IMG/VR virus record: IMGVR_UViG_3300044796_000394
Reading direction: 5' to 3' (one strand)
Length of the DNA stretch: 64,000 bases
Source of the DNA: a virus
Taxonomy: Duplodnaviria > Heunggongvirae > Uroviricota > Caudoviricetes
Part shown: positions 20,863-51,427 of the stretch, one piece after another
How the letters are laid out: each line of letters opens with the position of its first letter
Position numbering within the stretch: position 1 is the first letter of the stretch
Made by a program: the position numbers and the translations under genes
Notes under the pieces: generated by a model
What the model was told of the DNA's origin: nothing
The model's input: only the letters and a program-made list of their open reading frames with translations
Database searches by the model: none

Positions 20863-20890
20863 AAACCCACTTATTATAAGTGGGTTTTAT
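20863..20890. terminator. bidirectional hairpin terminator
   Basis: aaacccactta / taagtgggttt stem between convergent genes. Confidence 0.55.
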
Positions 20891-20897
20891 TGCGATT

Positions 20898-22397
20898 TCA
20901 ATAAGACGAACTACTAGATCCGGTTTCACATGTTGAAACACGCATTCTCGGAAGATCGTACTTTAACCAATCACGATAAATCTTGGTAAAATCTCTTATC
21001 ATTTTTTCAATTGATGAACATAGGTCATTCATCCCGTCAATGGTAGCCTTCCAATCACACTTACAAGTAAACGCAAGAATAAAATCATTCAAATTTTTCA
21101 ATGCATTTTGAATTGGTGTAAAATAATCTTTAACAGTAGCAAAAGAATTCAGTATTGCTGTTCCAATTTTACAACAAGCTTCACTCTTACTGCAATAAAG
21201 ATTCTTAAGAGCAATCATTTCGTCATTCGTTTTATTGACTTCTTGGATGATAGCATTAGCACTGTAAGTAATAGTATTCAAACGATTGAATACAGCTAAA
21301 TTGGCAGCATCACACTGAGCTTGTCTTTCAGGAGGAGCAGCAACAGCATTTACTCTATCGCATAAGCAACCTACAATTTGCTGTCTCAAATAAGTGCAAA
21401 TGCTCTTACAGTTATCGTCTCCTCCTGCACACTGAGGAACTACGTTTTCGGGTGTATTGGTGTCAGTGAGGAGTTGTCCAAACTTGTTACAGCCTATTTC
21501 TACAACTTTGTTAAGTGCAAATTTCATCAATGCATCAATTTGCCTTCTTTCGGCTTCATCGGGGCTTATTCTTCTTGCACCTGAATCAACAGCGTATTCG
21601 TAATATAATCTTTGTGCTTCGGTAAATGTGCTTCTCGTAACACCAAACGGTGAAACTTGAATCGTATATTTTAAAACATCCGAAGTTAAGGTGCGGGAAA
21701 TACCAAACGCATCGGTATAATTAGTGGCGTCAGCACCCATTGTTTCGAATAACTTAATTACGCAAGCATCCTCTGCGGGAGTAGGAGTTGGGAAAAACAA
21801 AGCTAATGGTCCACCGCCGCCTTTTGGTCCACCTTTTGGACCACCTTTTGGGCCAAGTCCTCTTGGCCCGGTGCCCGGCGATACTGTTGCAGATGGTGCT
21901 GCAGGAACAGGAACGACTTGCGGTCTAATAATAGCCGTCGGCTTTGGAAGTTTAACTCCGGGTTGCTCGACGGAAGAGAAAGGCTCTCCTAGAGGGCCGG
22001 ATATAATTGGTTGGCCATTTGACGGCACAATTGGGCTTCCTTGTGGCGGCACCGTAGTTAACGAATATGGTCCTCTTGCACCACCAGTACTCATGCCTTT
22101 ATCATAACCCATACCTTGATCGCCAACAATAAGTTGTCCGTTGCCGAGGCGTCCATTAGCATATGGTTGCGCTGGCATAGGTATACCAGGACCAGTAGAT
22201 GGTGCTGGAGCAGGTTGCGGTCTGACCGTACCCGGAATTAATTGGCCAGTATTCCTATCAAATTGTGCACCATCGAGTCTTTGTCCTGCTCCATATGGCA
22301 TTGCACTATTTCCTTGTCCTGCCTGTGGCATTGGTGGGAATGGACCGAGAGGTCCGGGGGTGCCGGGGATTGGAGGTGTACCGGGTGGTGGTGCCAT
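20898..22397 (-). CDS. collagen-like / Gly-Pro-rich structural protein with Cys-rich C-terminal domain
   Basis: N-terminal 200 aa Pro/Gly-rich with GPKGGPKGGPKGGGGP. C-terminal globular part with about 14 Cys. Ends GSSSSSY. Confidence 0.6.
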   Translation of the reverse strand: MAPPPGTPPIPGTPGPLGPFPPMPQAGQGNSAMPYGAGQRLDGAQFDRNTGQLIPGTVRPQPAPAPSTGPGIPMPAQPYANGRLGNGQLIVGDQGMGYDKGMSTGGARGPYSLTTVPPQGSPIVPSNGQPIISGPLGEPFSSVEQPGVKLPKPTAIIRPQVVPVPAAPSATVSPGTGPRGLGPKGGPKGGPKGGGGPLALFFPTPTPAEDACVIKLFETMGADATNYTDAFGISRTLTSDVLKYTIQVSPFGVTRSTFTEAQRLYYEYAVDSGARRISPDEAERRQIDALMKFALNKVVEIGCNKFGQLLTDTNTPENVVPQCAGGDDNCKSICTYLRQQIVGCLCDRVNAVAAPPERQAQCDAANLAVFNRLNTITYSANAIIQEVNKTNDEMIALKNLYCSKSEACCKIGTAILNSFATVKDYFTPIQNALKNLNDFILAFTCKCDWKATIDGMNDLCSSIEKMIRDFTKIYRDWLKYDLPRMRVSTCETGSSSSSY

Positions 22398-23420: not shown

Positions 23421-23599
23421 TTCTTGGCATTCCTTACAACTGTAGGCTCGCCGCTATCATCAAAAGTAAATTTGACTTTCTTCTTTGGCTTGTCACCGCC
23501 AACTACAATCGGCTCACCTTCTAAATTTGAGGCTAAACGAATTTTATCGTGATGCTTTTTGGCTTCAACGAACTCTCTGAATGTTTTGAATGTTTTCAT
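23417..23599 (-). CDS. small protein with MKTFKTFREFVEA N-terminus
   Basis: 60-aa ORF with ATGA coupling. Confidence 0.4.
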   Translation of the reverse strand: MKTFKTFREFVEAKKHHDKIRLASNLEGEPIVVGGDKPKKKVKFTFDDSGEPTVVRNAKK

Positions 23600-24068: not shown

Positions 24069-27000
24069 TTAGCCCGGTGATGAGACGTTCGTAATAATAC
24101 CACCAACAACTTCAACAAGCATTCCATCGCCTGATTGGAATGATCCTGTATATCCTTGAACCCCACCAATTGAAAAGTAATTTGTAGCATTGAACCACGC
24201 AGCGTTAATAATTCCAGAGGCATTAACCGCAGGGGCAATGAGATCAATAGCAGGATCTTCGCCAGTAGTTCTACATAAAACTTGGGCATCAACAGTACCC
24301 ACAACTACCGAATTATCGATATTAGATGTGATGCCGAATCCGAAAGCATATTGATTTTCAGATATGTCAGCACCTTCAATGAATGTCGGAGCAAATACAT
24401 TGTTCGCCAAGGTTCCACTCAAACTTCTATTACCAGCAGCACCATAAACAGCTTGTGCCAAAGTACCAGAAGGGCCGACATTTGATTCAAGGAAAACAAT
24501 AAAATGGGAACTGTAATTGGTGGTAATTTCATTATAGAAATTTTGAGAAGTAAACATAGCACTATAACCACCATCATTAAAGATGGTGATGGGGATATTT
24601 CCACCAGACACACTTGAATTATCATCAAATTCAAAGGTGTAGACATTGCCATTGGTGTCAGTTAGCACAATAGTATCACCATCTACTACTGTTTGTGAAC
24701 CAAAATTGAAAGATGCTGCTCCTTGAGCTGGTTCGTGTCCAACTGTATTATCGTTGCCAATAGTCAAATTATTATTAGTGTCTGGTCCAACAAGGAAATC
24801 ACCGTCACTTAATAAAGTATGATCCACAACAGTGCCCATTGCGTCAACCGTAGTGACCATTGGGGCAAAGCCGCTTTCATCATCCCTCAGCCAAAAGAAC
24901 ATCTTGTGAACATCCCCTTCAACAATAGAAGGGGGAGCAGCTGCGTGTGTACCTAATGGACCAGATATTTCAAGTTGTCCATCAACGCCAAGATTCAATA
25001 AGGTTTGATGATTATCCCAAGTAGTTGCTTCTTCACCAGCATCGACACCTTGAATTTGAAGCCCATTGTATCCGGCAGTACCTTGGAATCCTAATTTGAA
25101 TGCGGCATTACTCTTATTGTCAATTTCATCATTATCTGGATTGACATTATAGCCCCAAACCAACTCGCTGTTTTCTTTTTGAATTAACCAACCGCTTTCT
25201 AGTGGTGTACTTTCGTGAAGGGTATTGTTAATTGTAATGCCTGGCGAAACATTGATGTGGGTTGCGTGTAAGTTCAGAGTATTAGTATCGCCCAAAGCTT
25301 CAATGTAGTTTGCGTCAACCCCAAATCTGGAAGAGTTATCAACACTGACAGTTAAGCCTTTACCAAACGCAGTCATATAAGTTCCAATATCCGATCCGTC
25401 ATGGAACTGAGTTTCAAATATTGTTCCAGCTAAAGTGCCAACAACTTCCGTGTTTCCACTTTCCCCTTGATAGACTTGCGTTAGAAGATTGCCACCAATA
25501 TCCACATTGAATACAGCATCTTGACTTTGGTAATTGTGGGCGTTTAAGAAAGCGAATTTTGTATTTGCGGCACTATAAGTTCCGGCAATGGCAACCTGAA
25601 TACCATCGGTATGCGTTCCTACATTGGTGAAGTAGAAATTATAAACGTTTCCAGAAGTTGCCGTGAAGCCAATGGTGTCACCTTCTGTGATGGTGCCACC
25701 GATACCGAAGTCGCAAGATGCCGTCGCCCCGTTATCAACATCACCATTGGTGAATGCTGACGGGAAGAAGCCACCGTTCAAATTTCCAGTAAAAGCCGTG
25801 TTGCCTGCCGTGCCGTTGGCTTGGGTAAACAATATGGTCGTTGGTCCAGTCTGAGTAGCAGTGATTTCAAAACCGGGACCGGCTTGAAACATTTCAAAAA
25901 AGTTTGTAGTAGTGTTGTTCGCATCGTAACCGGTCGTTCCAATACGAACAATAATAGAGCCGTCAATAGAACGAACACCATTTGTGAATTCATAATTGTT
26001 AGATAGCTCAACCGCCCCGGCTTGGAAAGTGACATAATCACCATTGGAAATTGATCCAGCAGTGAAATCAAAGTTAAGAATCGCACTTGCCGCACTTCTG
26101 TTGGTGCTGTTGTTAAACCCTATAGCAACTAGATTATTTGGACCGTTAAGATTGTTGCCGCCACCCATTTGAATGCTGGCTGATTGGACGATGAAATTGT
26201 TTGTGGTTGACATGTAAAGATCAACTCCGCCCTCACCAGACGCAATGAAGGTTGTATTGTCTTCATTGTTCAATCCAATATATGCACTGTCAAAGTGTAA
26301 AGTTCCACCAACTTCAATGAGGGAATTGTTACCATTGAATGTTAAGTTGACATCATCAATACCTATTTTTAGGGTATTTTCTACTTGGTTATCTTGACCA
26401 GTTCCAATAGAATAAATGTTAACTAGTGGATTGAGACCGCCTGAAAAAGATGATGATCCAAAGTAATCACTACTGATTGAAGTATTGCCATCTGTGCCTG
26501 TAAAATTTTGCGTTAATTGAACAATGCTACCATCAACACCATAGCCTAATGGAACATTACCTTCGCTGAGAGCATCAAGAAAATTATTTGCTTGTGCTGA
26601 AGAACTTCCAGCAATCGTTACTGGAATATTGCCTTCTGTTACCGACATATCGTCATCAAACTCAAGAGTATAAGTGGTAGTAGCACCTGCCGCCTTGAGA
26701 ACTTCGATAGTTACCGTTTGTCCATTCGTAGGAATACTCGTAAATGTTAGTGTTGCTTGTGCTGGAGTGCCGTCGCTGCCGGTTGTATTATTATCACCGA
26801 AAACAAATGTGTTCCGTCCATTAACGGTATTATCGCCAATGTCAACACGACTTGCTTTCAATTGCATGGTATTGAAAGACGCCTCCGTTGTATCAAAATA
26901 CAATAGACCATAAGTGTTGCCTTGGTCGTCTTCTTCCGAACTTAATTCAACTTCACAATAACTATTTATGATTTCGGCATCACCGCCAATAGCTTGAACT

Positions 27001-28532
27001 GAAATCGTGCTACCGTTGCCATAAACTTGTGCGTAATTATTTGGATCATCATCTTGACCCAAGAAAAGACGACCTTCAGTAACATACAAATTGCCGTTAT
27101 CCATAGTGAATTTTTCGGCATTGTTATCAATTTTTAGACATGTATCATGAGCACCAATTGTAATTGTTTTGTTATTGACATTTAATCCGAAACCAAAACC
27201 GAATGCATTATTCGGATCATCCGTACCACCCTGAAATACCGTTCCAAAAATACAGTCAGTGCATGAAAAATTACCTTCAATATTCGTATTTCCAAAAGCA
27301 CCTTCAACATTTTGAGCAACAGAGCCAGTTGTGCCATCTTCATTAATGTTTACTGTAAACGGACTATTGGCTTCAACGGCGATCTTAAAGTTCGTAACGG
27401 TTTCGGCAAGAGTCCCACCGATTGTTACACCATATGTTCCTCCTGTAATGCTTTCATTATTATCAAATTCAAAGACATATTGTTCACCATTGGTATCTTG
27501 AAAACTGACGCCATAACCATCTACTACGCTTTGACGACTAAAATCAAACTCTGCCGAAGCAGGCGCAAGTGCATCACTGAAATGATTGTTGTTTCCAATC
27601 AACATAATATTGGTATAAGTGTCACCGATGACATTAACATCCTCGCCTCCGTTGAGATTGTTAATGTTGATAGCATCGAGAATATCGCCGCCGTTCATAT
27701 TTAGAACACCAGCAGGGTCTTCGTCTGCCCCTTTCATGATCAAGGCACTAATATTGTGAAGATAACTAACTCCGGCCCCGCCACACGATTCTACACCACC
27801 AACAAATGCTATGCCCGGCGTATAAATTCCCGATCCAAATTGGAATGTTTCTTGATCGGAATTAAAACTGACTATGGACTCTTCACCCGCACCAAAAACA
27901 AGTGTGGGTGTTTGAACTAGATCAAAAGCCACTTGATCGGTCGTATTCAAACTTTGATCAAATGAGTCCCCACCACCGCCTCCACCTGTTGCTGCCCATG
28001 AAGTTGTCGTGCCGTTAGTAGTCAAGAACTGTCCACTGTGTCCGGTTTGTGTTGGAAAAATACCGGCAGCATCACCCGTAATATTCAAATGATGAACATC
28101 TAGTGTTCCTGTATAAGTCCCATTGTTGCCACTTAAAGTATCAGCCATCAATTGGCCATCCACACCGGCATTATTGCTGACAACGAGATTGTTAAACGTG
28201 ACGTCATCGGTTGTATTCAAATCCTGATCAAACGAACTGCCACCACCACTAATGGTTTTGAATATGATTGTTTCACTTTCAGAATCATATGCCAAAACTC
28301 TATTGTTTGCTTTATTGGACGTATCAACGTTAATACCGTCAATGGTATTATCATCTACGGTTTTGAATTCTATCGCTTGCGTATCAGCGTTATAGAATAA
28401 GACTTTTCCGTCACCCTTGTTTGTAACATCAATCTTTATCCCTTTGATAAAATTTGCATCCGTTCTATTGGTGGATGCAAACTTAAGAGTTATAAATGGA
28501 ACATAGGCGCCGTTGAGAAAATACATTGTCAT
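24069..28532 (-). CDS. large tail-fibre-like structural protein (1487 aa)
   Basis: Asn/Gly/Thr-rich beta-structure composition. Repeated SFDQ[DS]LNTTD and Y[VT]FEFDDN..GG.IP.TI blocks. Confidence 0.65.
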   Translation of the reverse strand: MTMYFLNGAYVPFITLKFASTNRTDANFIKGIKIDVTNKGDGKVLFYNADTQAIEFKTVDDNTIDGINVDTSNKANNRVLAYDSESETIIFKTISGGGSSFDQDLNTTDDVTFNNLVVSNNAGVDGQLMADTLSGNNGTYTGTLDVHHLNITGDAAGIFPTQTGHSGQFLTTNGTTTSWAATGGGGGGDSFDQSLNTTDQVAFDLVQTPTLVFGAGEESIVSFNSDQETFQFGSGIYTPGIAFVGGVESCGGAGVSYLHNISALIMKGADEDPAGVLNMNGGDILDAININNLNGGEDVNVIGDTYTNIMLIGNNNHFSDALAPASAEFDFSRQSVVDGYGVSFQDTNGEQYVFEFDNNESITGGTYGVTIGGTLAETVTNFKIAVEANSPFTVNINEDGTTGSVAQNVEGAFGNTNIEGNFSCTDCIFGTVFQGGTDDPNNAFGFGFGLNVNNKTITIGAHDTCLKIDNNAEKFTMDNGNLYVTEGRLFLGQDDDPNNYAQVYGNGSTISVQAIGGDAEIINSYCEVELSSEEDDQGNTYGLLYFDTTEASFNTMQLKASRVDIGDNTVNGRNTFVFGDNNTTGSDGTPAQATLTFTSIPTNGQTVTIEVLKAAGATTTYTLEFDDDMSVTEGNIPVTIAGSSSAQANNFLDALSEGNVPLGYGVDGSIVQLTQNFTGTDGNTSISSDYFGSSSFSGGLNPLVNIYSIGTGQDNQVENTLKIGIDDVNLTFNGNNSLIEVGGTLHFDSAYIGLNNEDNTTFIASGEGGVDLYMSTTNNFIVQSASIQMGGGNNLNGPNNLVAIGFNNSTNRSAASAILNFDFTAGSISNGDYVTFQAGAVELSNNYEFTNGVRSIDGSIIVRIGTTGYDANNTTTNFFEMFQAGPGFEITATQTGPTTILFTQANGTAGNTAFTGNLNGGFFPSAFTNGDVDNGATASCDFGIGGTITEGDTIGFTATSGNVYNFYFTNVGTHTDGIQVAIAGTYSAANTKFAFLNAHNYQSQDAVFNVDIGGNLLTQVYQGESGNTEVVGTLAGTIFETQFHDGSDIGTYMTAFGKGLTVSVDNSSRFGVDANYIEALGDTNTLNLHATHINVSPGITINNTLHESTPLESGWLIQKENSELVWGYNVNPDNDEIDNKSNAAFKLGFQGTAGYNGLQIQGVDAGEEATTWDNHQTLLNLGVDGQLEISGPLGTHAAAPPSIVEGDVHKMFFWLRDDESGFAPMVTTVDAMGTVVDHTLLSDGDFLVGPDTNNNLTIGNDNTVGHEPAQGAASFNFGSQTVVDGDTIVLTDTNGNVYTFEFDDNSSVSGGNIPITIFNDGGYSAMFTSQNFYNEITTNYSSHFIVFLESNVGPSGTLAQAVYGAAGNRSLSGTLANNVFAPTFIEGADISENQYAFGFGITSNIDNSVVVGTVDAQVLCRTTGEDPAIDLIAPAVNASGIINAAWFNATNYFSIGGVQGYTGSFQSGDGMLVEVVGGIITNVSSPG

Positions 28533-31214: not shown

Positions 31215-32825
31215 ATGAAGGATTGGATTGAGGCCAATGTCGGCAAGCTCATCGCTGCCGGTATTGCCTTTGTACTGTTCGTGATTGTTGGTATCATCAC
31301 TTACAGCAGTGTCCGCATCGACGTTCCGGCAGAACACATTGCCGTTTTGACACGGAATACCGGCGAAGACATCGATAACGGCGATGCGGTGGCACCTGAT
31401 GCCAACCACAAAGGGCTGCAACTCGGTGTGTTAACCGAAGGCCGACACTTTTACAATCCGTATTCGTGGTCGTCCAACGTCTACCCGATGATTACCATCC
31501 CTGACGGCAAGCTCGGCGTTCGCATCCGCCAATACGGGAAGAACCTTCCCTACGGCGACTTCCTTGCCACGCAGGAAGATCAGAAGGGTATCGTGCCCGA
31601 AGTGCTTCGCCCCGGACGCTATCCCATCAATGGCGTGATCAAGGGTGAAGAAGCCAAACGCCCCAAAAACGACTATGTGGAAATCATCGAGCTTTACACG
31701 CCGGTCACCATTCCCGCCGGATACCGTGGGGTGGTTGCCAATCTCGCCGGGCCGCTTCCCGAAAATCCCAACGTGATCCTCGTTCCAAAGGGTTGCCGTG
31801 GCGTTCAAGAGGAAACGCTCGATACGGGAACCTACTACCTGAACCCATACCTTCACCGTGTTAACGTTGTGGATTGCCGCTCGCAACGGTTCAATCTCGC
31901 CGAAACGGTAGACATGGGCTTTCCGAGCCGGGATGGATTTTGGGTGTCCCTCGACGGCATCATCGAGTTCCGTGTCGATCCAGCCAAGGCCGCACATGTA
32001 TTCGTCGTCTACAACGAAACCTCTAACGACAATGTCGCCGACTCCATCATCCACGACGAATTGATCCGCAAGGTCATCATGCCGAACGCCCGCTCATTCT
32101 GCCGACTGAAAGGGTCGGACAAGTCGGGCCGGGACTTCATCGGCGGCGAAACCCGGATTGAATTCCAGAAAGATTTCCAAACGGCAATGGCGAAATCGTG
32201 CCGTCTCGAAGGCGTGGATGTCGTCCAAGCACTGATTACGAAGATTAACCCGCCGCAAGCAATCGCCAAGCCGGTTCGGGATCGAGAAGTCGCCCACCAA
32301 AAGCAACAGCAATACGTGGAGCAGAAAAAGCAGCAAGTGGCCGAAGCGATGCTGGCGACGGAAAAGGCATTGATCGCCCAACGTCAAGCACTGGTCACAA
32401 CGGAAACGACTGTGATACAGAACACGACCACTGCGAAGCAAAACCAGCAGGTGAAAGTCACCGAAGCAAATCGGGACTTGTCGGTTGGCAAGGCCGATCT
32501 CGAAGCAGCGAAGGATAAAGCCTCAGCGGTTCTTGCCGGGAAGAAAGCCGAAGCCGGGGTTATCGACTTCCAAAATCTCGCTGATGCTGCCGGTTGGAAA
32601 ACGGCGGTAGACGCATTGGGAGGCGATGGCGAAGCCTATGCCCGGTTCGTTCTCTACCAGAAGTTAGCACCGGCATTCAAGAAGATGATGGTTAACACTG
32701 GCGATAGCCCACTCATGAAAATCTTTGAGGGCTTCAACAAGGATAACCAAAAACCGGCACCACCGGCAGGCGCACCGAAACCGGTTGCTGCATTGCCGGA
32801 ACCGAAACCGCTCGAAAAGAAATAA
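31215..32825 (+). CDS. SPFH/band-7 (flotillin/YqiK-like) membrane protein 1
   Basis: N-terminal transmembrane segment, SPFH-like core, C-terminal coiled coil (QKQQQYVEQKKQQVAEAMLATEKAL). GC-rich relative to its flanks. Confidence 0.65.
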   Translation: MKDWIEANVGKLIAAGIAFVLFVIVGIITYSSVRIDVPAEHIAVLTRNTGEDIDNGDAVAPDANHKGLQLGVLTEGRHFYNPYSWSSNVYPMITIPDGKLGVRIRQYGKNLPYGDFLATQEDQKGIVPEVLRPGRYPINGVIKGEEAKRPKNDYVEIIELYTPVTIPAGYRGVVANLAGPLPENPNVILVPKGCRGVQEETLDTGTYYLNPYLHRVNVVDCRSQRFNLAETVDMGFPSRDGFWVSLDGIIEFRVDPAKAAHVFVVYNETSNDNVADSIIHDELIRKVIMPNARSFCRLKGSDKSGRDFIGGETRIEFQKDFQTAMAKSCRLEGVDVVQALITKINPPQAIAKPVRDREVAHQKQQQYVEQKKQQVAEAMLATEKALIAQRQALVTTETTVIQNTTTAKQNQQVKVTEANRDLSVGKADLEAAKDKASAVLAGKKAEAGVIDFQNLADAAGWKTAVDALGGDGEAYARFVLYQKLAPAFKKMMVNTGDSPLMKIFEGFNKDNQKPAPPAGAPKPVAALPEPKPLEKK

Positions 32826-32876
32826 CCCTCACCCCACTCTTACTTTCCCCTTAACATTGAAACAGGAGATTGCGTC

Positions 32877-34469
32877 GTGAACTGGAAACTCAAATTCGGC
32901 TTGCTTGGATTGCTCGCCGTGATGGTGATCTATGTCGGCGTGGATTGGCTTTGGAACCGGGTACAAGTTCCAGACGGCCACAGCCTGCAACTGCGATACA
33001 AAGGTCCGATGTTCTTCGGTAAACACAATCAAGCCGAAGCAGGCAATTGGGCCAAAGAAGGCGAAGTCGGCATTTTGGAAAAACTCCGTGGGCCGGGCCG
33101 ACACTTCTACTGCCCGATCTGGTGGGAACGTACGATTGTGCCGGATGTGATCGTCAAGCCGGGTGAAGTCGGCTTGGTGACGTGCAAGTTGGGTGCCTCC
33201 TTGCCAGAAGGCGAATTCCTCGTAGACGGCGAAATCGGGGATACGAAATTCAAGGGAACGCTTCGGAAGGTATTGGGGCCGGGTCGCTACCGGGTTAACC
33301 CTTACGGCTACGAAGTGAAAGTTGTTGGCACCCACACCATTGACTCTGGCAACGCCAAGAAGCAATCTGGTTGGGTTAACATTCCAACAGGATACGTCGG
33401 CGTCGTTTCCAACTTGGCTGACAATCCGATTACTCACCAGAAAACCGGCATTCAAGACAAGGTTCTGCCTCCCGGCCTGTATCCGATGAATCCGGCTGAA
33501 CAACACGTGGACGTTGTGGAAATCGGCTTCCACGAAACCCACATTGACATTACCAGCGGTGGAAAGAACACGCTGGAAATGGCCAAGGCGGATGAAGAAG
33601 GAAATAACCTCGATGCGACATTGACCGGGGGTATTAACTTCCCATCAGCGGACGGGTTCAGCATCACGATGGACTATACGGCAGTGTGGGGGCTGATGCC
33701 AAATCAAGCCCCGAATGCTATCCGCAAGTTCGGCAACGTCGGCCTTGTGGAGCAGAAGGTGGTGTTGCCACAAATCGAATCGATCTGCCGCAACAATGGT
33801 TCCGAATATCCGGCAGTGAAGCTGTTGGTCGGCGAACAGCGAGAAATCTTCCAGAACAAGACTCTGACTGAATTCCAAGCTGTTCTGGCAGCAAAAGACA
33901 TTACCTTACTCTACGGATTGGTACGGCACATCTATATTCCAACAGATGTTCGCCGTCCTATTCAAACGGCATACATTGCCGACGAGTTGAAGCTGACACG
34001 GGAAGTGGAACAGCTAACGGCCAAAAAGGAAGCCGAATTGCGGGAAGCAGAGCGAAAGGTTGAACAGGCAACACTCGAAACCAACGCTCTGACGACGAAG
34101 TTGGTTGCCGAAAAATTGGCAGACGGTGACAAGATAGTTGCCGAAACGGACGCCGAAACCCGGAAGCTGGTTGCCACAATTAACAAGCAAACCGCCGAAT
34201 TGAAGGCGCAAGCGACACTTGTGGCAGGGCAAGCGGAAGGTGAAGGCAAGATGGCTATCGAGACGGCGAAAGCCAGCAAGTTCAAGATGGCTGTGACCGC
34301 CTTTGGAACACCCGCTGCCTACAATAATTGGGTGTTCGCTACCGCTCTGCCCGATGGATTGGAATTGAACCTGTTCTATTCGGGCACCGGAACCCTGTGG
34401 ACGGACTTGAACGGCGGTAAGTTCAACATTAACGTGCCAGCACCGGCAGCAGAAGCTCCGAAGAAGTAA
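32877..34469 (+). CDS. SPFH/band-7 (flotillin-like) membrane protein 2 (paralog)
   Basis: GTG start with an AGGAG ribosome-binding site and an N-terminal transmembrane segment. Shares blocks with gene 1 (GxGRYxVNP, coiled-coil tail). Confidence 0.65.
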   Translation: MNWKLKFGLLGLLAVMVIYVGVDWLWNRVQVPDGHSLQLRYKGPMFFGKHNQAEAGNWAKEGEVGILEKLRGPGRHFYCPIWWERTIVPDVIVKPGEVGLVTCKLGASLPEGEFLVDGEIGDTKFKGTLRKVLGPGRYRVNPYGYEVKVVGTHTIDSGNAKKQSGWVNIPTGYVGVVSNLADNPITHQKTGIQDKVLPPGLYPMNPAEQHVDVVEIGFHETHIDITSGGKNTLEMAKADEEGNNLDATLTGGINFPSADGFSITMDYTAVWGLMPNQAPNAIRKFGNVGLVEQKVVLPQIESICRNNGSEYPAVKLLVGEQREIFQNKTLTEFQAVLAAKDITLLYGLVRHIYIPTDVRRPIQTAYIADELKLTREVEQLTAKKEAELREAERKVEQATLETNALTTKLVAEKLADGDKIVAETDAETRKLVATINKQTAELKAQATLVAGQAEGEGKMAIETAKASKFKMAVTAFGTPAAYNNWVFATALPDGLELNLFYSGTGTLWTDLNGGKFNINVPAPAAEAPKK

Positions 34470-39202: not shown

Positions 39203-39271
39203 GTTGATTATCTGTCTTATTATGGTATCTTCATGGTAGTTCCTTTTAGTTGCTAAAACTTGGAGTGTATC

Positions 39272-39640
39272 ATGAAGATCCCGTGTCCTCTTAGCAAGAC
39301 GGCCAAGAAGTTTAAGTTCCAGTACATTGCTGGCCCCTTCCTGCCGTTTACGGATGCTGAACTTGCAAAAAAAATGGCGGTTAACGTCGCCAACAAAGAA
39401 AACGTCGTCATCGCTGACTACCGATCATTCGGCTATCACGAAATGGACGAAACTCTCAAAAAGGCTTGGCTCAATGCTCAAATCGGTTGGGATCACCCAA
39501 TGTTGAAGGGTCAAGGCCCGGATAGTAAGATTGCCGCCCGTAGCTATTTCGTTTGCTCCAAAACGGAAAGTGATAAGCCGTACTCGTTCTTTGAAGATCA
39601 AAACGATGAGTATTGGAAGACGATTGAAAAACGAGGCTAA
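39272..39640 (+). CDS. hypothetical protein
   Basis: GGAG ribosome-binding site, 122 aa. Confidence 0.5.
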   Translation: MKIPCPLSKTAKKFKFQYIAGPFLPFTDAELAKKMAVNVANKENVVIADYRSFGYHEMDETLKKAWLNAQIGWDHPMLKGQGPDSKIAARSYFVCSKTESDKPYSFFEDQNDEYWKTIEKRG

Positions 39641-39823: not shown

Positions 39824-40184
39824 GTAATCTTTCCATAATCGCATGACCTAACGGATTTCCCCGGCCAATAATGCGGAATCCAAGATTCAGATAAAAGTTT
39901 CCAAGTCGATTAAGGTTTGTTCGTTTGTCGAGTGGCGATGCTAAAAGTTTGATTCTTAATTTTCTTGCATCTGCCTCTGCTACCAATGCTTTCATGGCAG
40001 CAAGAGCTAATCCCTGATTTCTTTTCTTTCCTGAAACACGAAGAGAAGCAAGGTCAATAAGGTCGCCTGACACTTGATAAAGTAACCTTGCACCATTAAT
40101 GTTTTTCTGATGATGCTTTTCAGCGAAATCTTCATCAGAAAATGGCAGGTTCTCGGACTCTAAATAGTATTGCTTGAAGTTCAT
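39810..40184 (-). CDS. GNAT N-acetyltransferase
   Basis: RNQGLALAAMKALV (motif A). Confidence 0.55.
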   Translation of the reverse strand: MNFKQYYLESENLPFSDEDFAEKHHQKNINGARLLYQVSGDLIDLASLRVSGKKRNQGLALAAMKALVAEADARKLRIKLLASPLDKRTNLNRLGNFYLNLGFRIIGRGNPLGHAIMERLPTSS

Positions 40185-40843
40185 TGGTCTGAAATTTGAA
40201 ACTCCTTCTTTTTAGCGGCAATCCAAACCTCCGTAATAATGATAAATTTTATACCCCGCTTCTTACAGTACTCGTTGCAATAACTCCATTTAGATTCATT
40301 TATCGCCAAGTTTGTTTGATTGACCGGCTTGATTTCCCACACTTCTTTTCTTCCATCGGTAAAGTGAACACGCAAGTCAGGAAGATAAGTATGTCTCTCA
40401 CCATCAAAGAAATACTCAATTTCCAGCGGCTCTACTTCGTAACCAATTACATCATCCATCTTATCCAGAATGCGATAAACATCTAATTCCCATCCCGAAT
40501 TGTAATGGAGCTTTCTGCGATTTTTTGGCGAAACGTGCCACCCTTCCTTGAATGATATTTTCTTTTTCTTACGATTAGGATCTTTGGGATCACGCCAGAT
40601 CAATGATTTCATTTGACAAGTTTTAGGCAACACTTCTTGTGGATGTATTGATTTGAAATGTGCTCTGACATCTCTAACGGGAGCACAGCAACGAGCCAAG
40701 GGGCATACGACGTATTCTCGCCCCTCTTCGTGGTTATTGCGTATATGTTCTTTGAAACTGGCCCAATCGGGCTGCAGGACGCCACAGACGAAGCATTGAA
40801 ATTGTCTCTTGCCGCCGTGGTTATTGTTAAATGGTAATGGCAT
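40181..40843 (-). CDS. C2H2-type zinc-finger protein fused to a PD-(D/E)xK nuclease-like domain
   Basis: FQCFVCG...H..H zinc finger at the N-terminus. LPDLRVHF...EVWEIKP matches PD...E-x-K. Confidence 0.45.
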   Translation of the reverse strand: MPLPFNNNHGGKRQFQCFVCGVLQPDWASFKEHIRNNHEEGREYVVCPLARCCAPVRDVRAHFKSIHPQEVLPKTCQMKSLIWRDPKDPNRKKKKISFKEGWHVSPKNRRKLHYNSGWELDVYRILDKMDDVIGYEVEPLEIEYFFDGERHTYLPDLRVHFTDGRKEVWEIKPVNQTNLAINESKWSYCNEYCKKRGIKFIIITEVWIAAKKKEFQISDQ

Positions 40844-40951
40844 ATAAAAATCTTTTTTAATTTGACTATAATTGGCATTCCTTATTATGCCAATTGTTTA
40901 ATCACCTGTGTCAGAAATCCCATCCCATTAAGACAAAGCAATCTTCGAGCA

Positions 40952-42262: not shown

Positions 42263-42297
42263 GTTAATTTCCTTTTGTAATATTATGTATTTTTATC

Positions 42298-42326
42298 TTG
42301 CAAATGATTTTCAATTATGGTAGACT
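42298..42326 (+). promoter_or_regulatory. sigma-70-like promoter with extended -10
   Basis: TTGCAA, 17-nt spacer, TGgTAGACT. Shares the 12-mer ttatggtagact with the PncA promoter. Confidence 0.5.
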
Positions 42327-42350
42327 ATTTCCATCCTTCCGGAGTAGATC

Positions 42351-43547
42351 ATGGCCATTAAAAGCTTGCTGGACAACGACATCTATAAAATTTTCATGCA
42401 ATATGCCGTACTCAAAGAGTTTCCGGGTACGCATGTCCGTATGGCTTTCATGAACCGTCGTAAAACCGATGTTCTCTCAAAATCGCTTTTGAAATCTTTA
42501 AGGGAAGTCGTAAATTCCGTGAAAGGCATGAAAGCCGATTCATGGGAATTGTCACACATCCATAAACACTACCCATTCCTGCCAAATTGGTATATGGATT
42601 GGCTTAGTGAGTTTGCCCCAAATCCCGCCCACGTTAATATAACGGAAAACGGTGAAATTACCGTTGAAGGCCCGTGGGAACAAGCCATGTGGTGGGAAAT
42701 TCCCATCCTCTACACAATCAGCGAATTGTTCTGCGGGGAAATCGATGCTGAAATAGGACACATTCCTCGTAGCGAAATAGTCAAATCCACATTGACCAAA
42801 ATGGAAATTCTGAAAGGTCACTACAGTCGCTATGGCGAGGCAATCGAACACGATCCTTGTCAATACGTTCAATTCGGCTGTCGTCGTCGTCGCTCATACG
42901 ATATTGAGGATGAAGTTGTTCGTACAATGAAAAAGGCCGATCATCCGAATATGCTCGGTATTAGCAACATCCACTTGGCAGCGAAATACGATATTAGGCC
43001 GGTGGGCACAATGGCTCATGAGTTCGTTATGGGTGTCAGTGCATTGAAAAGCCTGCGATATGCCAACCGTGAGGCAATGGAGACATGGCTTCGTGTTTTC
43101 AAGGGCGAATTGGATATTTTCCTGCCCGATACTTTTGGAACGAATGTGTTCCTGAAAGACTACACTCGCCAATTTGCTCAAGCATTCAATGCGACTCGAC
43201 AAGATAGCGGGTCAGCGTATGAATACGGCGAAAAACTCATTAACCATTACAAAACAGTAAAACTTGATCCAAAAACCAAATCGATCACATTCAGTGATGG
43301 GTTAACTGCTACAGAATCAACGAACATCCAGCAACACTTCTACAATCGAATTAAAAGAGCTTACGGCATCGGCACACACTTCACTAACGATTTCATGAAC
43401 AGACCTGCCATGAATATCGTGATGAAGTTAACACATGTCAACGGAATTCCGGTCGTCAAGCTCAGCGACGTTCCCGGCAAAGCCTGTGGCGATCCCAATG
43501 CTCTCAAAGCAGCAAAGTGGGTGTTTCTCGGCGAACCTTTAGTATAA
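42351..43547 (+). CDS. pncB: nicotinate phosphoribosyltransferase
   Basis: LLDNDIYKIFMQYAV and GPWEQAMWWEIPILYTISE align block by block with E. coli PncB, with similar length (398 aa). Confidence 0.85.
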   Translation: MAIKSLLDNDIYKIFMQYAVLKEFPGTHVRMAFMNRRKTDVLSKSLLKSLREVVNSVKGMKADSWELSHIHKHYPFLPNWYMDWLSEFAPNPAHVNITENGEITVEGPWEQAMWWEIPILYTISELFCGEIDAEIGHIPRSEIVKSTLTKMEILKGHYSRYGEAIEHDPCQYVQFGCRRRRSYDIEDEVVRTMKKADHPNMLGISNIHLAAKYDIRPVGTMAHEFVMGVSALKSLRYANREAMETWLRVFKGELDIFLPDTFGTNVFLKDYTRQFAQAFNATRQDSGSAYEYGEKLINHYKTVKLDPKTKSITFSDGLTATESTNIQQHFYNRIKRAYGIGTHFTNDFMNRPAMNIVMKLTHVNGIPVVKLSDVPGKACGDPNALKAAKWVFLGEPLV

Positions 43548-43556
43548 GGATTTACG

Positions 43557-44045
43557 ATGAAGTACGTTGAATGTCCCGACTTGTTCATTCCTGAATCCAT
43601 CGATGATTACAAGAAAACCTTGTTTCTCGGTGGGGGAATTTCAGGTGTGGGCAATTGGCAAGCGGAGATGGTGAGATTGTTGCAGGATACGGAGTTAATC
43701 CTCATCAATCCCCGGCGAACCAACTTCGACGTTAATAATACAAAAATGACTGTGGAACAAATCCAGTGGGAATATCACCACTTGAATTTGTCTCATGCTC
43801 GTATGTTCTGGTTCCCACCGGAAACTCTGTGTCCGATCACCTTATTTGAATTAGGGAGATTCTCCGTACAGAGCAATCCCCTATTCGTAGGGTGTGATCC
43901 CAAATACGCACGGTCGCTTGATCTCGAAGAGCAAATGAAGCATGTCCGAAGATCGGAAGTCATGTTTGATTTGGAGATTCTCGCACGACAGATTATTTTG
44001 TATGCGAAACATATGTCAAGCAACGGGCGATACTACGCCACTTAA
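43557..44045 (+). CDS. nucleoside 2-deoxyribosyltransferase-like (Nuc_deoxyri_tr2 fold) protein
   Basis: TLFLGGGISG N-terminal glycine loop and a later FELG block. Typical phage NDT-like size (162 aa). Confidence 0.45.
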   Translation: MKYVECPDLFIPESIDDYKKTLFLGGGISGVGNWQAEMVRLLQDTELILINPRRTNFDVNNTKMTVEQIQWEYHHLNLSHARMFWFPPETLCPITLFELGRFSVQSNPLFVGCDPKYARSLDLEEQMKHVRRSEVMFDLEILARQIILYAKHMSSNGRYYAT

Positions 44046-45136: not shown

Positions 45137-45172
45137 GCTCTATTTAGCCCCTCATGTCACAATCATTTCAGA

Positions 45173-45200
45173 TTGATTGTCATTCTTGTTTCGTTATAAT
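45173..45200 (+). promoter_or_regulatory. sigma-70-type promoter
   Basis: TTGATT, 16-nt spacer, TATAAT. A second TTGACT-N18-TTTTAA sits at 45222-45251 ahead of the dNMP-kinase operon. Confidence 0.5.
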
Positions 45201-45265
45201 AACACCCAGAATAATAGAATTTTGACTATCTGAAATAGGCGAAGCTTTTAATTTACGGAGTATTG

Positions 45266-45862: not shown

Positions 45863-46608
45863 TGCATTTCGTTATAAGAAACAAAGATTTTATTTTCACA
45901 GAAACCGTATTGCCGGGCGATGATGTTCTTACATCCAATGGCGGTAAGGTATTTCAAGATTACATCCAAGAAACTAAAGTTTTATGTGGGCCTTACTCTG
46001 AATGTAAATTTCCACAAAGTTACTTCGGCAACATCCGACCTTGGGATTACGAGCGGATTTTAGAATACGGGGACTTCGCTGCCAATCAAAAGGTTTTAGA
46101 ATGCGGTGGGCTTCATAGCTATTTCGCTATTGCCACTTCCCAAAAAGTTAATCATTACACTTGTACTGATAGTTTTTATTGGGCGACTCGTGACTATGCT
46201 CAAAATCCACAATTACAAAGTCCTCAAGAGTGGTGTAAGTATTTGATTGGTAAAGGTCGTGGCAAACTTCACGCCGAAGAAGCCGACTTGCAATCCATGA
46301 AGTATGCCAACGAACAATTTGATAGAGTTGTCTGTATCAGTGTGATTGAGCATGTACACGAAGATCGCAAGGGTATTCTGGAAATGATGAGGGTTCTTAA
46401 GCCGGGCGGTTTATTGCTTTTGACAACTGAATACAATCCCACTTGGTCTAAGCCTTACGCTGAAACAGACGGCAGTTATTATCGTGTATATGATCAAAGT
46501 GACTTGAGTAATCTTTTGGCTGGTCTTGATGTTGAAGTAATGCAAGCCCAAGGTGGGGATGTTCGTGACGGGCAATTTACTACTACGTTCATACGGATCA
46601 GAAAATGA
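45862..46608 (+). CDS. class-I SAM-dependent methyltransferase
   Basis: VLECGGLHSY (motif I), DRVVCISVIEHV, LKPGGLLLLT (Methyltransf_11 pattern). Confidence 0.65.
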   Translation: MHFVIRNKDFIFTETVLPGDDVLTSNGGKVFQDYIQETKVLCGPYSECKFPQSYFGNIRPWDYERILEYGDFAANQKVLECGGLHSYFAIATSQKVNHYTCTDSFYWATRDYAQNPQLQSPQEWCKYLIGKGRGKLHAEEADLQSMKYANEQFDRVVCISVIEHVHEDRKGILEMMRVLKPGGLLLLTTEYNPTWSKPYAETDGSYYRVYDQSDLSNLLAGLDVEVMQAQGGDVRDGQFTTTFIRIRK

Positions 46609-48014
46609 ATGTATCTGACATCATTAATAAGTTCAAAATTCAAAATGCCAAAACGAGACTGAGAATAGCAGTTATTGGTGATACGCTCGTTGATGAATAC
46701 CGTTACGGCCAAGTCAACCGGATTTCGCCCGAATTTCCCGTTCCGATATTAACTTCCGAGTCAGACGCCAAGGAATCTTGTCCCGGTGGCGCTGCGAATG
46801 TATGCCATCAAATGACACACATGAACGCCGAAGTCTTTCTCGTAGGCTTTGTGGACAATGTCACACGTAAATTGTACGGTCAGCAAACCTTCAATATTGA
46901 CTACTGCGTTGATTTGCCAAGCGGCTTTGTACCAATCAAAGTTCGATTTTATGAAGGCGACTTTCCTCTCCTGCGATGGGATATTGAAAGTCCTAACTAT
47001 GGCGAAAAAGATTTAAGTGAATTGAGACGAAAAATTCTCATTAATTTTGAATCTCTCATCAAAGAGGGATTGAGTGCGGTCATTATTAGTGATTATAATA
47101 AAGGCATCTTTGACGAAGCTACCGCTCGTTCTCTCATGCAATTATGTACTTATTACCGCATTCCTACTATCGTTGATCCCAAGAAACCACCAGTGAGCAA
47201 ATGGTTCGGGGCTACAGTCATTAAGCCAAATGCGGCTGAAGCCAAGACGCTAACTGGTGAATCTACTATTTCATCTCAATTGAGTAAATTATGTGAAAAT
47301 GCTCATACGAGTATGATCACCCAAGGCGGCGACGGTGTTATTTGCCAAATTGGAAAAGAAATTTTTGAATACATGTCCCCCGTACCACGATCTAAGGAGG
47401 TGAACAGTGTTATCGGGGCGGGGGACTGTTTTATAGCAATGTTAACTCTTGGGATGTCGCACGGTATGACAACTCAAGAAGCTGTAGCATTGGCATTTGA
47501 AGCCGGTGCTGTTTACGTTAAAGCAAGACATAATAAACCAATTCATCTTAATGAAATACTCGCAAGAGTTGATGTTGAAGGCTCTCGTATCGTCAAAGCC
47601 GAAGAGTTAAACTTTAACAAAAACGAACGTATTGTTTTCACAAATGGTTGTTTTGACGTTATTCATGCTGGTCACTTGGATACTTTGAAATTTGCCAAAT
47701 GTCAAGGTGATCGATTGATTGTCGGTGTTAATTCGGATGCTTCTGTCAAGCGACTTAAGGGTGATAAGCGACCCATTTATGGACAAGATGAACGTGCTAG
47801 ATTTTTAGCGTCAATGTATTTCGTAGATCATGTTGTGATTTTTGATGAAGATACACCAGCCGAATTGATTAATAAAATTCAGCCACACATTGTTGTTAAG
47901 GGCGGCGATTACTCTATTACGGATGTTGTTGCCGGTAATGCCAAAGTTGTTTTGTCGCCTCTCAGAAAAGGATACTCTTCAACTAATACAATTAATAAAC
48001 TATCTGACGACTAA
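46605..48014 (+). CDS. hldE: bifunctional D-beta-D-heptose 7-phosphate kinase / heptose 1-phosphate adenylyltransferase
   Basis: N-terminal pfkB/ribokinase-like domain (IAVIGDTLVDEY, GGAANV, GAGD). C-terminal cytidylyltransferase domain (VFTNGCFDVIHAGH, RLIVGVNSD). Confidence 0.8.
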   Translation: MNVSDIINKFKIQNAKTRLRIAVIGDTLVDEYRYGQVNRISPEFPVPILTSESDAKESCPGGAANVCHQMTHMNAEVFLVGFVDNVTRKLYGQQTFNIDYCVDLPSGFVPIKVRFYEGDFPLLRWDIESPNYGEKDLSELRRKILINFESLIKEGLSAVIISDYNKGIFDEATARSLMQLCTYYRIPTIVDPKKPPVSKWFGATVIKPNAAEAKTLTGESTISSQLSKLCENAHTSMITQGGDGVICQIGKEIFEYMSPVPRSKEVNSVIGAGDCFIAMLTLGMSHGMTTQEAVALAFEAGAVYVKARHNKPIHLNEILARVDVEGSRIVKAEELNFNKNERIVFTNGCFDVIHAGHLDTLKFAKCQGDRLIVGVNSDASVKRLKGDKRPIYGQDERARFLASMYFVDHVVIFDEDTPAELINKIQPHIVVKGGDYSITDVVAGNAKVVLSPLRKGYSSTNTINKLSDD

Positions 48015-49762: not shown

Positions 49763-51427
49763 TTACCAACCAAATTCCTGTAAAAGTTTATGATGTGGTC
49801 TTTGTGTGTCGAACATCATTCTTGGCAACAAGTCAACATCTGGATCTAGATTGGCCAACAAATCGCCCGTTTCAATACCAGCTTCCAATTCTTTCCACAA
49901 TGCCTTAACGTCGTCACCCGAAAAACTCTTGTGAATGATATTAGCATCAGGCGTAGCACCGATTGGCATTTCCCGGTTCAAAACGTCAGAGATGTACAAT
50001 GCTATACTGAGGCAAATCACCAAGTCGTCATGCTTGTTCTTTTGTGCTTCGGCTCTTTGCTTTTCTTGATTGTAAATGAATGTTAACAATTCCCGAATAA
50101 TACGAACGCTTCGAATCTTGACAAGACGATTCAACATACACGTTTGTAATGCTTCCATACAAACTGGACGCAATACTTTATTCATGTTAACGCCGGGACG
50201 ATCTCTAGTTGCCCCTTGCGTAAAGTAAAGGTTGTCATAACTCAATGAGTGTTCAAGTCGTTCACAAACAGCTTGGCCCGGTCCCATTGAGTTTTCCACA
50301 ATAATCAAAGCATTGTTATAAAGTTTTCCCACATGCGCCAAAACTTGACTGAACTTATATGTCGGAATTGTCTTGGAATAAAATTCAGCCACTTGCGTTA
50401 ACGTGGAAATGTCCATGACAATAAAGGCGCAGTTATCGCCTTCTTGTCCAACACCCATAGCGGCATCGGCAGTAATGAGATATTCACGACCGGATTTAGG
50501 CATTTCCCAAACCCACATCGCACCGGGTTCGTATTTTGCATTCGGAAGTTCGTCTTCTTTGAAGCTTTCTTCGGGGATGATGTCCCATTCACCCATCATC
50601 TTTTTAATTGGATTAGAGCATTGTTTTTCAAATTCTTTGATAACTTCACCGGGAATGTAAGTATCACCGGAGCCGAGGAATGAACCTTCGTATTCCTGTG
50701 CGAAGCCTTTTTCGCCGATGTTAGCTCGTGTTCGCTTTTCCCATTCGGCATTGTTATAGTCGGGGTGTTCATGCCAGTCAATATGTACAACAAAAAACTG
50801 ACTTCTCTTGTCAATAGCCTTTTGGTATTGTTCGTAGTACCAACCACCGACGCCACCGATACCGTTAACCGTGGAGATGATAATAGCATTACCACCGGTT
50901 GAGAGCGTAGGATACATGCTCTTCCAGTGTTCTTCCATACCTTGAACGAACGCCGCTTCATCGATAATTAGATAAGTTAAAGCACGGGAACGAGCAGCGG
51001 CAGGAGTATAGAACCACATAACCGAACGAGTTTCAGCAAACTCTTTTTCGTGGTCGTTATCGTTGTTCATTTCCGGACGAAGCCATTCCGGAAGTTCATT
51101 CTTGGCATTAGCTACCGTTTTACCTACAGCTTTAGCTTCACGGTCAGTTTTAGAAGCAATGAGAATACGCTGATCGGTGTAGAAAATGCACTTCCATAAC
51201 ATCCACATAGATGTTACAGTGGTCAGACCGGCTTGACGGAATTTCTTAACAATGCTAAACTGATTAGATTCAAAGTCAGAGATAACTCGATTTTGGAAGT
51301 CGTATAGAACGAATGGTACCAAACCCTTTTTCGGGTGGGTAATCTGTAAGTACTTCTCAGAAAAGTACTTGAAACTATTTCGACATCTGATAAACTCTCT
51401 AAGTTGCTCGTCATTTAATTGGCCCAT
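49763..51427 (-). CDS. terminase large subunit (T4 gp17-like)
   Basis: FRQAGLTTVTS Walker A-like block, IIDEAAF Walker B, and a C-terminal nuclease-sized region. 554 aa. Confidence 0.85.
   Translation of the reverse strand: MGQLNDEQLREFIRCRNSFKYFSEKYLQITHPKKGLVPFVLYDFQNRVISDFESNQFSIVKKFRQAGLTTVTSMWMLWKCIFYTDQRILIASKTDREAKAVGKTVANAKNELPEWLRPEMNNDNDHEKEFAETRSVMWFYTPAAARSRALTYLIIDEAAFVQGMEEHWKSMYPTLSTGGNAIIISTVNGIGGVGGWYYEQYQKAIDKRSQFFVVHIDWHEHPDYNNAEWEKRTRANIGEKGFAQEYEGSFLGSGDTYIPGEVIKEFEKQCSNPIKKMMGEWDIIPEESFKEDELPNAKYEPGAMWVWEMPKSGREYLITADAAMGVGQEGDNCAFIVMDISTLTQVAEFYSKTIPTYKFSQVLAHVGKLYNNALIIVENSMGPGQAVCERLEHSLSYDNLYFTQGATRDRPGVNMNKVLRPVCMEALQTCMLNRLVKIRSVRIIRELLTFIYNQEKQRAEAQKNKHDDLVICLSIALYISDVLNREMPIGATPDANIIHKSFSGDDVKALWKELEAGIETGDLLANLDPDVDLLPRMMFDTQRPHHKLLQEFGW

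Follow-up and report, generated by a model that had tools for sequence, protein, structure and literature searches.

A probable shared extended -10 promoter design before the NAD-salvage genes pncB and pncA of a very large phage, with candidate start-codon hairpin gating at pncA

The DNA analyzed here is a stretch of 64 kb (hereafter the window; GC 42.5%) in which two genes of NAD salvage, pncB and pncA, lie 18 kb apart. The window is phage DNA and encodes a terminase large subunit (49763-51427, minus strand) and helicases. The pncB and pncA proteins are on record in a contig of 614,480 bp, which makes the source a very large phage; all counts given for the window thus cover 64 kb, about a tenth of the ~614 kb contig. 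No near-identical DNA was present in the phage collection and no tRNA genes were found in the window.

The initial annotation had named the two genes from the sequence, and both names were upheld by protein domain matches: the first product carries the NAPRTase domains of a nicotinate phosphoribosyltransferase and the second matches the isochorismatase domain (Table 1). Homologues of the second product are named nicotinamidase/pyrazinamidase in the sources. The gene upstream of pncB is divergent and is separated from it by an intergenic gap of 88 nt (42263-42350), so pncB needs a promoter of its own within this gap. It is followed by a nucleoside 2-deoxyribosyltransferase-like gene, which is probably co-transcribed with it, and this two-gene unit runs up against convergent genes. 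The gene upstream of pncA (59413-60216), on the other side, is co-directional and ends in a TGA stop codon at 60214-60216. A small lysine/glutamate-rich ORF after pncA is probably co-transcribed with it. Convergent to pncA is a gene for a Nudix hydrolase of 175 aa (61021-61548), whose single Pfam match is the Nudix domain.

Table 1. Predicted promoter elements, predicted hairpin arms and genes at the pncB, pncA and 39272 loci
Feature	Positions	Strand	Remarks
Gene 39272 promoter, third of this design	39204-39231	+	TTGATT, 16 nt, TATCTT; TTATGG at 39220-39225 abuts the hexamer
Gene 39272 hairpin, 5' arm	39227-39238	+	ATCTTCATGGTA; overlaps the -10 hexamer (39226-39231)
Gene 39272 hairpin, 3' arm	39268-39279	+	TATCATGAAGAT; over the ATG at 39272-39274
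pncB -35-like hexamer	42298-42303	+	TTGCAA; 4/6 to TTGACA; 17 nt from the -10 hexamer
pncB 12-mer	42315-42326	+	TTATGGTAGACT; extended -10 TTATGG (contains TRTG/TGn) and -10 TAGACT; hexamer 42321-42326
pncB ribosome site and start	42341-42353	+	GGAGTAGATCATG; motif GGAGTnnAYCATG
pncB, nicotinate phosphoribosyltransferase	42351-43547	+	Pfam NAPRTase, E 3e-58; NAPRTase_N, E 1.5e-24
Nucleoside 2-deoxyribosyltransferase-like gene, after pncB	43557-44045	+	
pncA -35 hexamer	60213-60218	+	TTGACA; 6/6; spacer 16 nt; overlaps the upstream TGA stop
pncA hairpin, 5' arm	60227-60241	+	ATTTATGGTAGACTT; holds the entire 12-mer
pncA 12-mer	60229-60240	+	TTATGGTAGACT; extended -10 and -10 TAGACT; hexamer 60235-60240
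pncA hairpin, 3' arm	60250-60264	+	GAGTCTACCATGAAT; Shine-Dalgarno end, ATG (60259-60261) and next codon
pncA, nicotinamidase-like	60259-60864	+	Isochorismatase fold; DWHPADH motif; isochorismatase domain match
Lysine/glutamate-rich ORF, after pncA	60867-61052	+	61 aa

Elsewhere in the window, a PfkB and CTP_transf_like fusion gene (46605-48014) represents further NAD-related gene content. The NadD and NMNAT enzymes are members of the adenylyltransferase superfamily to which the CTP_transf_like domain belongs. The window also holds two adjacent paralogues with Band_7/SPFH domains (31215-34469, plus strand), a 1487-aa ORF (24069-28532, minus strand) for which there was no PHROG match, and a gene for a protein with a TnsA-like N-terminal domain (40181-40843, minus strand) that is kept beside the pncB locus in the relative L004 described below.

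The exact 12-mer TTATGGTAGACT is present on the plus strand before both pncB and pncA, as the initial annotation had reported, and the layouts proposed there, TTGCAA-N17-TAGACT for pncB and TTGACA-N16-TAGACT for pncA, were both confirmed. The box has the same layout at each site (T-TATG-G-TAGACT), with TG one base ahead of TAGACT, so that the claim of a TG extended -10 element with a common hexamer was also borne out. Read as a promoter element, TATGgTAGACT is a TAnnnT hexamer with TGn within TRTG, an arrangement that we take to be the classical extended -10 or "-16 region". Each copy has a -35 box at a distance of 16-17 nt and lies in sense orientation in non-coding DNA; the end of TAGACT is separated from the start codon by 24 nt at pncB and 18 nt at pncA. 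TAGACT matches the -10 consensus at four of six positions, the consensus being that of sigma-70/TRTG promoters, which may not be the host's. The pncB promoter scores 8/12 over its two hexamers and is absent from the list returned by a consensus scan. Two high scorers in the promoter scan, 19669-19697 and 20873-20901 (TTGAAA, 17 nt, TATAAT), sit in the loops of the terminator-like hairpins aaagcccgcTATAATaggcgggcttt and aaaacccacttATAATAagtgggtttt and were set aside as false positives.

A third promoter of the same design, again with TTATGG directly ahead of the hexamer, was found before gene 39272. TRTGnTAnnnT is not enriched across the window (19 matches compared to 16.8 expected). Its placement, on the other hand, is non-random: four of the 19 matches are in sense orientation 18-40 nt ahead of the starts of gene 39272, pncB, gene 48644 and pncA, where our own estimate of the chance expectation is ~0.3-0.6, depending on the width taken for the upstream window.

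The three TTATGG promoters have a further feature in common. Each precedes one of the four copies of the ribosome-site motif GGAGTnnAYCATG in the window (0.05 expected, for a motif that was defined post hoc). The distance from hexamer to GGAG differs among the three (8, 14, and 30 nt). The fourth copy of the motif, GGAGTTTACCATG, is on the minus strand at 59661-59674, within gene 59413-60216; it would serve an antisense ORF of 23 codons, and the plus strand at the same place reads TCATGGTAAACT, a two-mismatch version of the 12-mer. This copy is probably due to chance.

To assess conservation of the promoters we turned to relatives. The closest PncB (58% identical) is encoded on contig L004, where the unit consists of TTGACA, 17 nt, and TAAAGT with TTATGG ahead, followed by a tRNA gene, a small ORF and pncB; the tRNA gene and small ORF occupy the interval between the TTATGG-type promoter and pncB at 1580-1660. 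The closest PncA (55% identical) is encoded on contig L008 and is preceded by TTGACA, 17 nt, and TATACT with TGTGG, and the -35 box overlaps the stop codon of the homologous upstream gene, as it does at pncA in the window. A third relative, L011, encodes a PncA that is 52% identical and has TTGCCT, 17 nt, and TATACT with TGn. On L004 and L008 these promoter sites are the only matches to TRTGnTAnnnT on either contig. A promoter is therefore found at the homologous place in all three relatives, while the sequence of the hexamer varies: with TAAAGT or TATACT at a promoter whose place is unchanged, the relatives do not conserve the TAGACT hexamer. Beyond the lineage consensus TTATGG-TAnAnT, just two hexamer positions, G3 and C5, are specific to pncA and pncB.

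Protein matches to PncB and PncA in the phage collection were at most 37% identical, so that their promoters could not usefully be compared. A metagenome scan with the PncA alignment returned high-GC bacterial loci (GC 0.54-0.73; best matches 43-54% identical) and neither phage relatives nor the source contig. Among named cellular proteins, the homologues nearest to the phage PncA (45-49% identity) come from Planctomycetes, mainly Gemmataceae (Zavarzinella, Gemmata, Fimbriiglobus, and Urbifossiella) along with Isosphaera. Together with the contrast between the GC content of the phage (42.5%) and that of the related metagenome loci (54-73%), these homologues may hint at the origin of the gene or at the host.

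How much weight the identity of the 12-mer can bear depends on its background frequency. The initial annotation held it very unlikely that chance would yield a 12-mer twice within 64 kb, and this did not survive counting: there are 386 same-strand identical 12-mer pairs in the window, compared to ~215 in a first-order Markov simulation and 122 from uniform theory. When the comparison was restricted to the 70-nt upstream regions of the 91 called genes, four of 4095 pairs shared 12 nt or more, pncB/pncA among them, so that for this function-chosen pair a shared 12-mer has a probability of roughly 1 in 1000. Two other upstream pairs share the 13-mers GAAACAAGAATGA and TAAGGAATGCCAA (45137-45262 with 62552-62612, and 40844-40951 with 23421-23490), and one 13-mer falls in the spacer of a promoter-like site (TTGGCA, 17 nt, TATAGT) before gene 40181-40843.

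With one mismatch or fewer, the 12-mer occurs five times in the window compared to 0.20 expected, and one of these occurrences belongs to pncA itself, where the 12-mer is part of an inverted repeat and this copy forms the other arm. No further copies were found in the 6.8 kb beyond the window end that contig L006 provides. We also considered whether the 12-mer might belong to a larger dispersed repeat, the circumstance named at the outset as counting against a promoter. The identity ends at 12 nt, the flanks and spacers are unrelated, and the other copies with one mismatch or fewer are isolated. The box is thus not part of a longer dispersed repeat, and a mobile element was likewise rejected. 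Of the single-mismatch copies, TTATGATAGACT lies on the minus strand at 14313-14324, where a spacer of 18 nt separates genes 13504-14313 and 14332-14544; 54 nt on, inside the next gene, is the near-inverted copy TTATGATAGATT (14379-14390, plus strand), and neither has a usable -35 box. As promoters, 14313-14324 (minus) and 56850-56861 (plus) were rejected, since they lack a -35 box or are antisense within a gene, and we treat them as chance. For the heptamer GGTAGAC there is no enrichment (8 copies in the window compared to ~8 expected by our own estimate).

What the initial annotation missed is that the pncA copy of the box also serves as an arm of a predicted hairpin of 15 bp in which the start codon is paired. 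A second hairpin of this type is present at gene 39272. In both cases the 5' arm overlaps the promoter and the 3' arm covers the ATG (Table 1). Pairing of the arms is possible because TAYCATG at the ribosome sites is complementary to the promoter sequence TATGGTA. RNA folding predicted a stability of -20.0 kcal/mol for the pncA hairpin (z = -8.05) and -19.1 kcal/mol for the 12-bp hairpin of gene 39272 (z = -5.13). Among 89 gene starts, the longest ungapped start-codon stem is that of pncA, followed by that of gene 39272; in random segments of the window, stem scores of at least 11.5 and at least 14 had p = 0.004 and p = 0.0003, respectively. RNAs beginning at the predicted own start sites of the two genes, on the other hand, are predicted to be unstructured (z = +0.5 and +0.2). 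Both stems were predicted to be 5.5-7 kcal/mol more stable as sense than as antisense RNA because of G-U pairs, and the loops are 8 nt and 29 nt long. The strand bias and the unequal loops favor a role in RNA over a protein-binding DNA palindrome. An operator was therefore rejected as the main reading of the pncA inverted repeat, given its variable spacing and its sense-strand G-U pairs. An intrinsic terminator was also rejected for both hairpins, as neither stem is followed by a T-run, and no terminator was seen between the upstream co-directional genes and the starts of pncA and gene 39272.

No significant hairpin was predicted at pncB (z = +0.5 over 81 nt and -1.1 over 51 nt). Since its upstream gene is also divergent, a hairpin cannot account for the box at pncB. 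The sequence of the pncA hairpin is not conserved either: L008 has a different stem of 10 bp that brackets the Shine-Dalgarno sequence and AUG rather than pairing with them, and L011 has a weak stem (z = -0.17) in which the -10 element pairs with the spacer between Shine-Dalgarno sequence and start. In the window, stems scoring 11 or more are found at five of 89 gene starts compared to ~0.45 expected, so start-codon hairpins seem to be generally enriched in this phage. A third one is formed by TTCATATATAT (57132-57142) and ATATATATGAA (57169-57179) and covers the start codon of gene 57175-58593, which opens the operon lying upstream of pncA; it was predicted to have -20.8 kcal/mol (z = -3.34; antisense -12.6 kcal/mol), and its 5' arm holds no convincing sigma-70-like promoter.

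We propose to read each 12-mer as the -10 hexamer, together with its upstream extension, of a bacterial sigma-70-type promoter (TTGnnn, 16-17 nt, TAGACT, with TRTG/TGn ahead). One such promoter would transcribe pncB and the deoxyribosyltransferase-like gene and the other pncA and the small ORF. The phage appears to employ this TTATGG plus TAnnnT sub-class for at least one unrelated gene, 39272, which implies that most of the 12-base identity is class consensus. By this account pncA and pncB are probably turned on by the same form of polymerase, with like strength and at a like time. At pncA and gene 39272 the box would have an additional effect. In read-through RNA from the co-directional upstream gene it could pair with the Shine-Dalgarno sequence and AUG and should block translation, while RNA begun ~7 nt past the -10 hexamer would lack the 5' arm and be open for translation. 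The comparisons show the sequences with their spacings and positions, the conserved placement of the promoter in relatives, and the predicted stability and strand bias of the hairpins; that the promoters are active, where their transcripts begin, that read-through occurs, and how translation and timing are affected is what we infer. We regard the explanation as a whole, with sigma-70-type extended -10 promoters at each gene and hairpin gating at pncA and 39272, as probable. Taken by itself the promoter reading is quite likely, while hairpin gating by itself is tentative and, in our estimate, falls slightly short of an even chance.

The same observations bear on several other explanations. It could be speculated that the 12-mer is the site of an operator or activator, overlying the -10 element, through which a NAD-responsive or phage-encoded regulator coordinates a split pncA/pncB regulon. 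This would account for the 12/12 identity before two functionally linked genes (~1 in 1000 per upstream pair), for the non-consensus G3 and C5 that pncA and pncB alone have in common, and for the near-perfect inverted repeat at pncA, of which pncB has a degenerate second half-site, AGTAGATCAT. We consider it unlikely, however, as the sequence fits neither the NrtR nor the NadR operator, the half-sites are spaced 10 nt apart at pncA and 16 nt apart at pncB, and the T:G mismatches in the pncA arms become G-U pairs on the sense RNA strand alone. Furthermore, the relatives retain the promoter and not TAGACT, GGTAGAC shows no enrichment, no HTH protein was detected beside either gene, and the neighboring Nudix protein shows no sign of a DNA-binding domain. 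In a more far-reaching version the exact 12-mer, including the unusual TAGACT, would mark a dedicated regulon in which a phage or host factor co-induces the split PncA/PncB salvage route against NAD-depleting defence, the 12-mer gating the translation of pncA as well; we give it a slightly lower probability still. The suggestion in the initial annotation that the two genes are co-regulated from a common promoter class can thus be upheld in part. A common class is indicated by the orientation, the -35 spacing, the short leaders and the promoters of the relatives, but gene 39272, the tRNA-ORF-pncB unit of L004 and the hexamers of the relatives argue against one that is specific to NAD genes, and a NAD-specific control element is not supported by the sequence comparisons.

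Another possibility is that the box belongs to a phage-specific temporal class and is recognized by a phage-encoded sigma factor or RNA polymerase, not by the housekeeping holoenzyme of the host. Very large phages often encode their own transcription factors, and the block TTATGGTA, seen at three genes of the window and again in L004, extends further than TGn by itself. Every instance nevertheless combines a TAnnnT hexamer with a TTGACA-like -35 box 16-17 nt away, as a housekeeping sigma factor needs, and no sigma or polymerase gene was identified among the fraction of window genes that was screened; the TRTG "-16 region" is reportedly a known feature of housekeeping promoters. We therefore judge a dedicated phage factor to be improbable, and no less so the idea that box and GGAGTnnAYCATG are a copied promoter-RBS cassette spread by recombination, whose identity would reflect common descent and not selected co-regulation. 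A cassette would explain why the three TTATGG promoters precede three of the four ribosome-site motifs (0.05 expected, motif post hoc) and why the pncB box matches the start region of pncA better than its own, but the spacers, leaders and flanks have no similarity, the leaders differ in length (8, 14, and 30 nt), and homology cannot be deduced from as little as twelve bases. Finally, the match might be a coincidence, with one or both copies not being functional promoters. The hundreds of repeated 12-mers in the window, the three additional upstream pairs that share 12-13 nt with no obvious meaning, and the 8/12 score of a pncB promoter that the consensus scan missed are all consistent with this. 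On the other hand, the boxes stand in one register relative to the -35 boxes and start codons, promoters occur at homologous positions in three relatives, the pair-specific probability is ~1e-3, and pncB, coming after a divergent gene, needs a promoter inside its 88-nt gap. Coincidence is accordingly a very unlikely explanation, slightly more so than the cassette or the phage factor.

If the proposed sigma-70-type promoters are real, they offer a first handle on the timing of NAD-salvage genes in an uncultured very large phage. Such genes are topical, as many bacterial defence systems destroy NAD. The identity of the 12-mer by itself adds little, being mostly promoter consensus. Hairpin gating would matter for annotation and for the reading of phage transcriptomes: a hairpin-gated gene would be translatable from its own promoter alone, so RNA coverage of that gene would not imply protein synthesis. 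Were the regulon reading true instead, the two genes would add a fourth type to the NAD-restoring pathways of phages, one that has its own control element.

Among known systems, the boxes resemble the extended -10 promoters of sigma-70/sigma-A in bacteria and their phages most closely in their parts: TAnnnT, a TG in TATG, a TTGACA-like -35 box, a short leader, and a weak hexamer offset by the extension. They differ in that TAGACT is uncommon and that the phages of this lineage repeatedly show one more conserved T and one more G, giving TTATGG.

The bacterial NAD regulons (NrtR, NadR, NiaR, and NAD+ riboswitches) offer a likeness of another kind, namely a shared, promoter-overlapping sequence before two NAD-salvage genes, an overlap that is frequent among repressor operators. 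The NrtR operator is a 21-bp palindrome with the core GT-N7-AC and the NadR operator is TGTTTA-N6-TAAACA (PMC2330246). The NrtR palindrome is absent at both sites, and the NadR operator is absent from 42263-42350 and 60217-60258. No Rfam covariance model, those of the NAD riboswitches included, matched the window at the gathering score, and the two leaders gave noise (E >=2). NrtR combines a Nudix domain with a wHTH domain, so the 175-aa protein next to pncA, with just a Nudix domain, does not resemble an NrtR. In contrast to these regulons, then, the phage sites have no operator or riboswitch match, no regulator gene was found, and the box design is also present at a non-NAD gene, since 39272 is an orphan for which we found no homologues and no link to NAD.

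The gene content recalls the phage NAD+ reconstitution pathways NARP1-3 (bioRxiv 10.1101/2024.02.11.579819; PMC13464706). As in those cases a phage carries NAD-restoring enzymes, and nicotinamide, the substrate of PncA, is the product of NAD-depleting defences. On the other hand, a pairing of PncA with PncB, leading from nicotinamide through nicotinate to NaMN, does not figure in the two-gene modules described so far (PMC13464706), the genes are 18 kb apart, and reaching NAD would require NadD and NadE activities.

The closest parallel to the candidate gating is in phage T4, where e (lysozyme), soc, 49 and I-TevI each have a promoter within the 5' half of a structure that inhibits translation, and only RNAs begun there can be translated (PMC3014915, section 29; McPheeters et al. 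1986, as cited in PMC3014915). In T4, as predicted here for pncA and gene 39272 and absent at pncB, a stem pairs the Shine-Dalgarno sequence and AUG in the long RNA, the gene has its own promoter in or at the 5' arm, and a gene on the same strand lies upstream, not set off by a terminator; in the present case the arrangement is read from sequence. The T4 internal promoter is late (TATAAATA), gp55-dependent, and delays expression, whereas the promoters described here are sigma-70-like with a -35 box. The two genes thus fall outside the T4 late-gene set, which leaves the analogy of mechanism unaffected. With an internal promoter that is sigma-70-like, unlike that of the T4 late genes, the timing may be reversed, or the hairpin may merely insulate the gene. 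By analogy, the candidate promoter-in-hairpin gating at pncA and gene 39272 suggests a further example of the mechanism known from T4, in which the same trick would occur in phages far removed from T4 and would work with sigma-70-type promoters of the ordinary kind.
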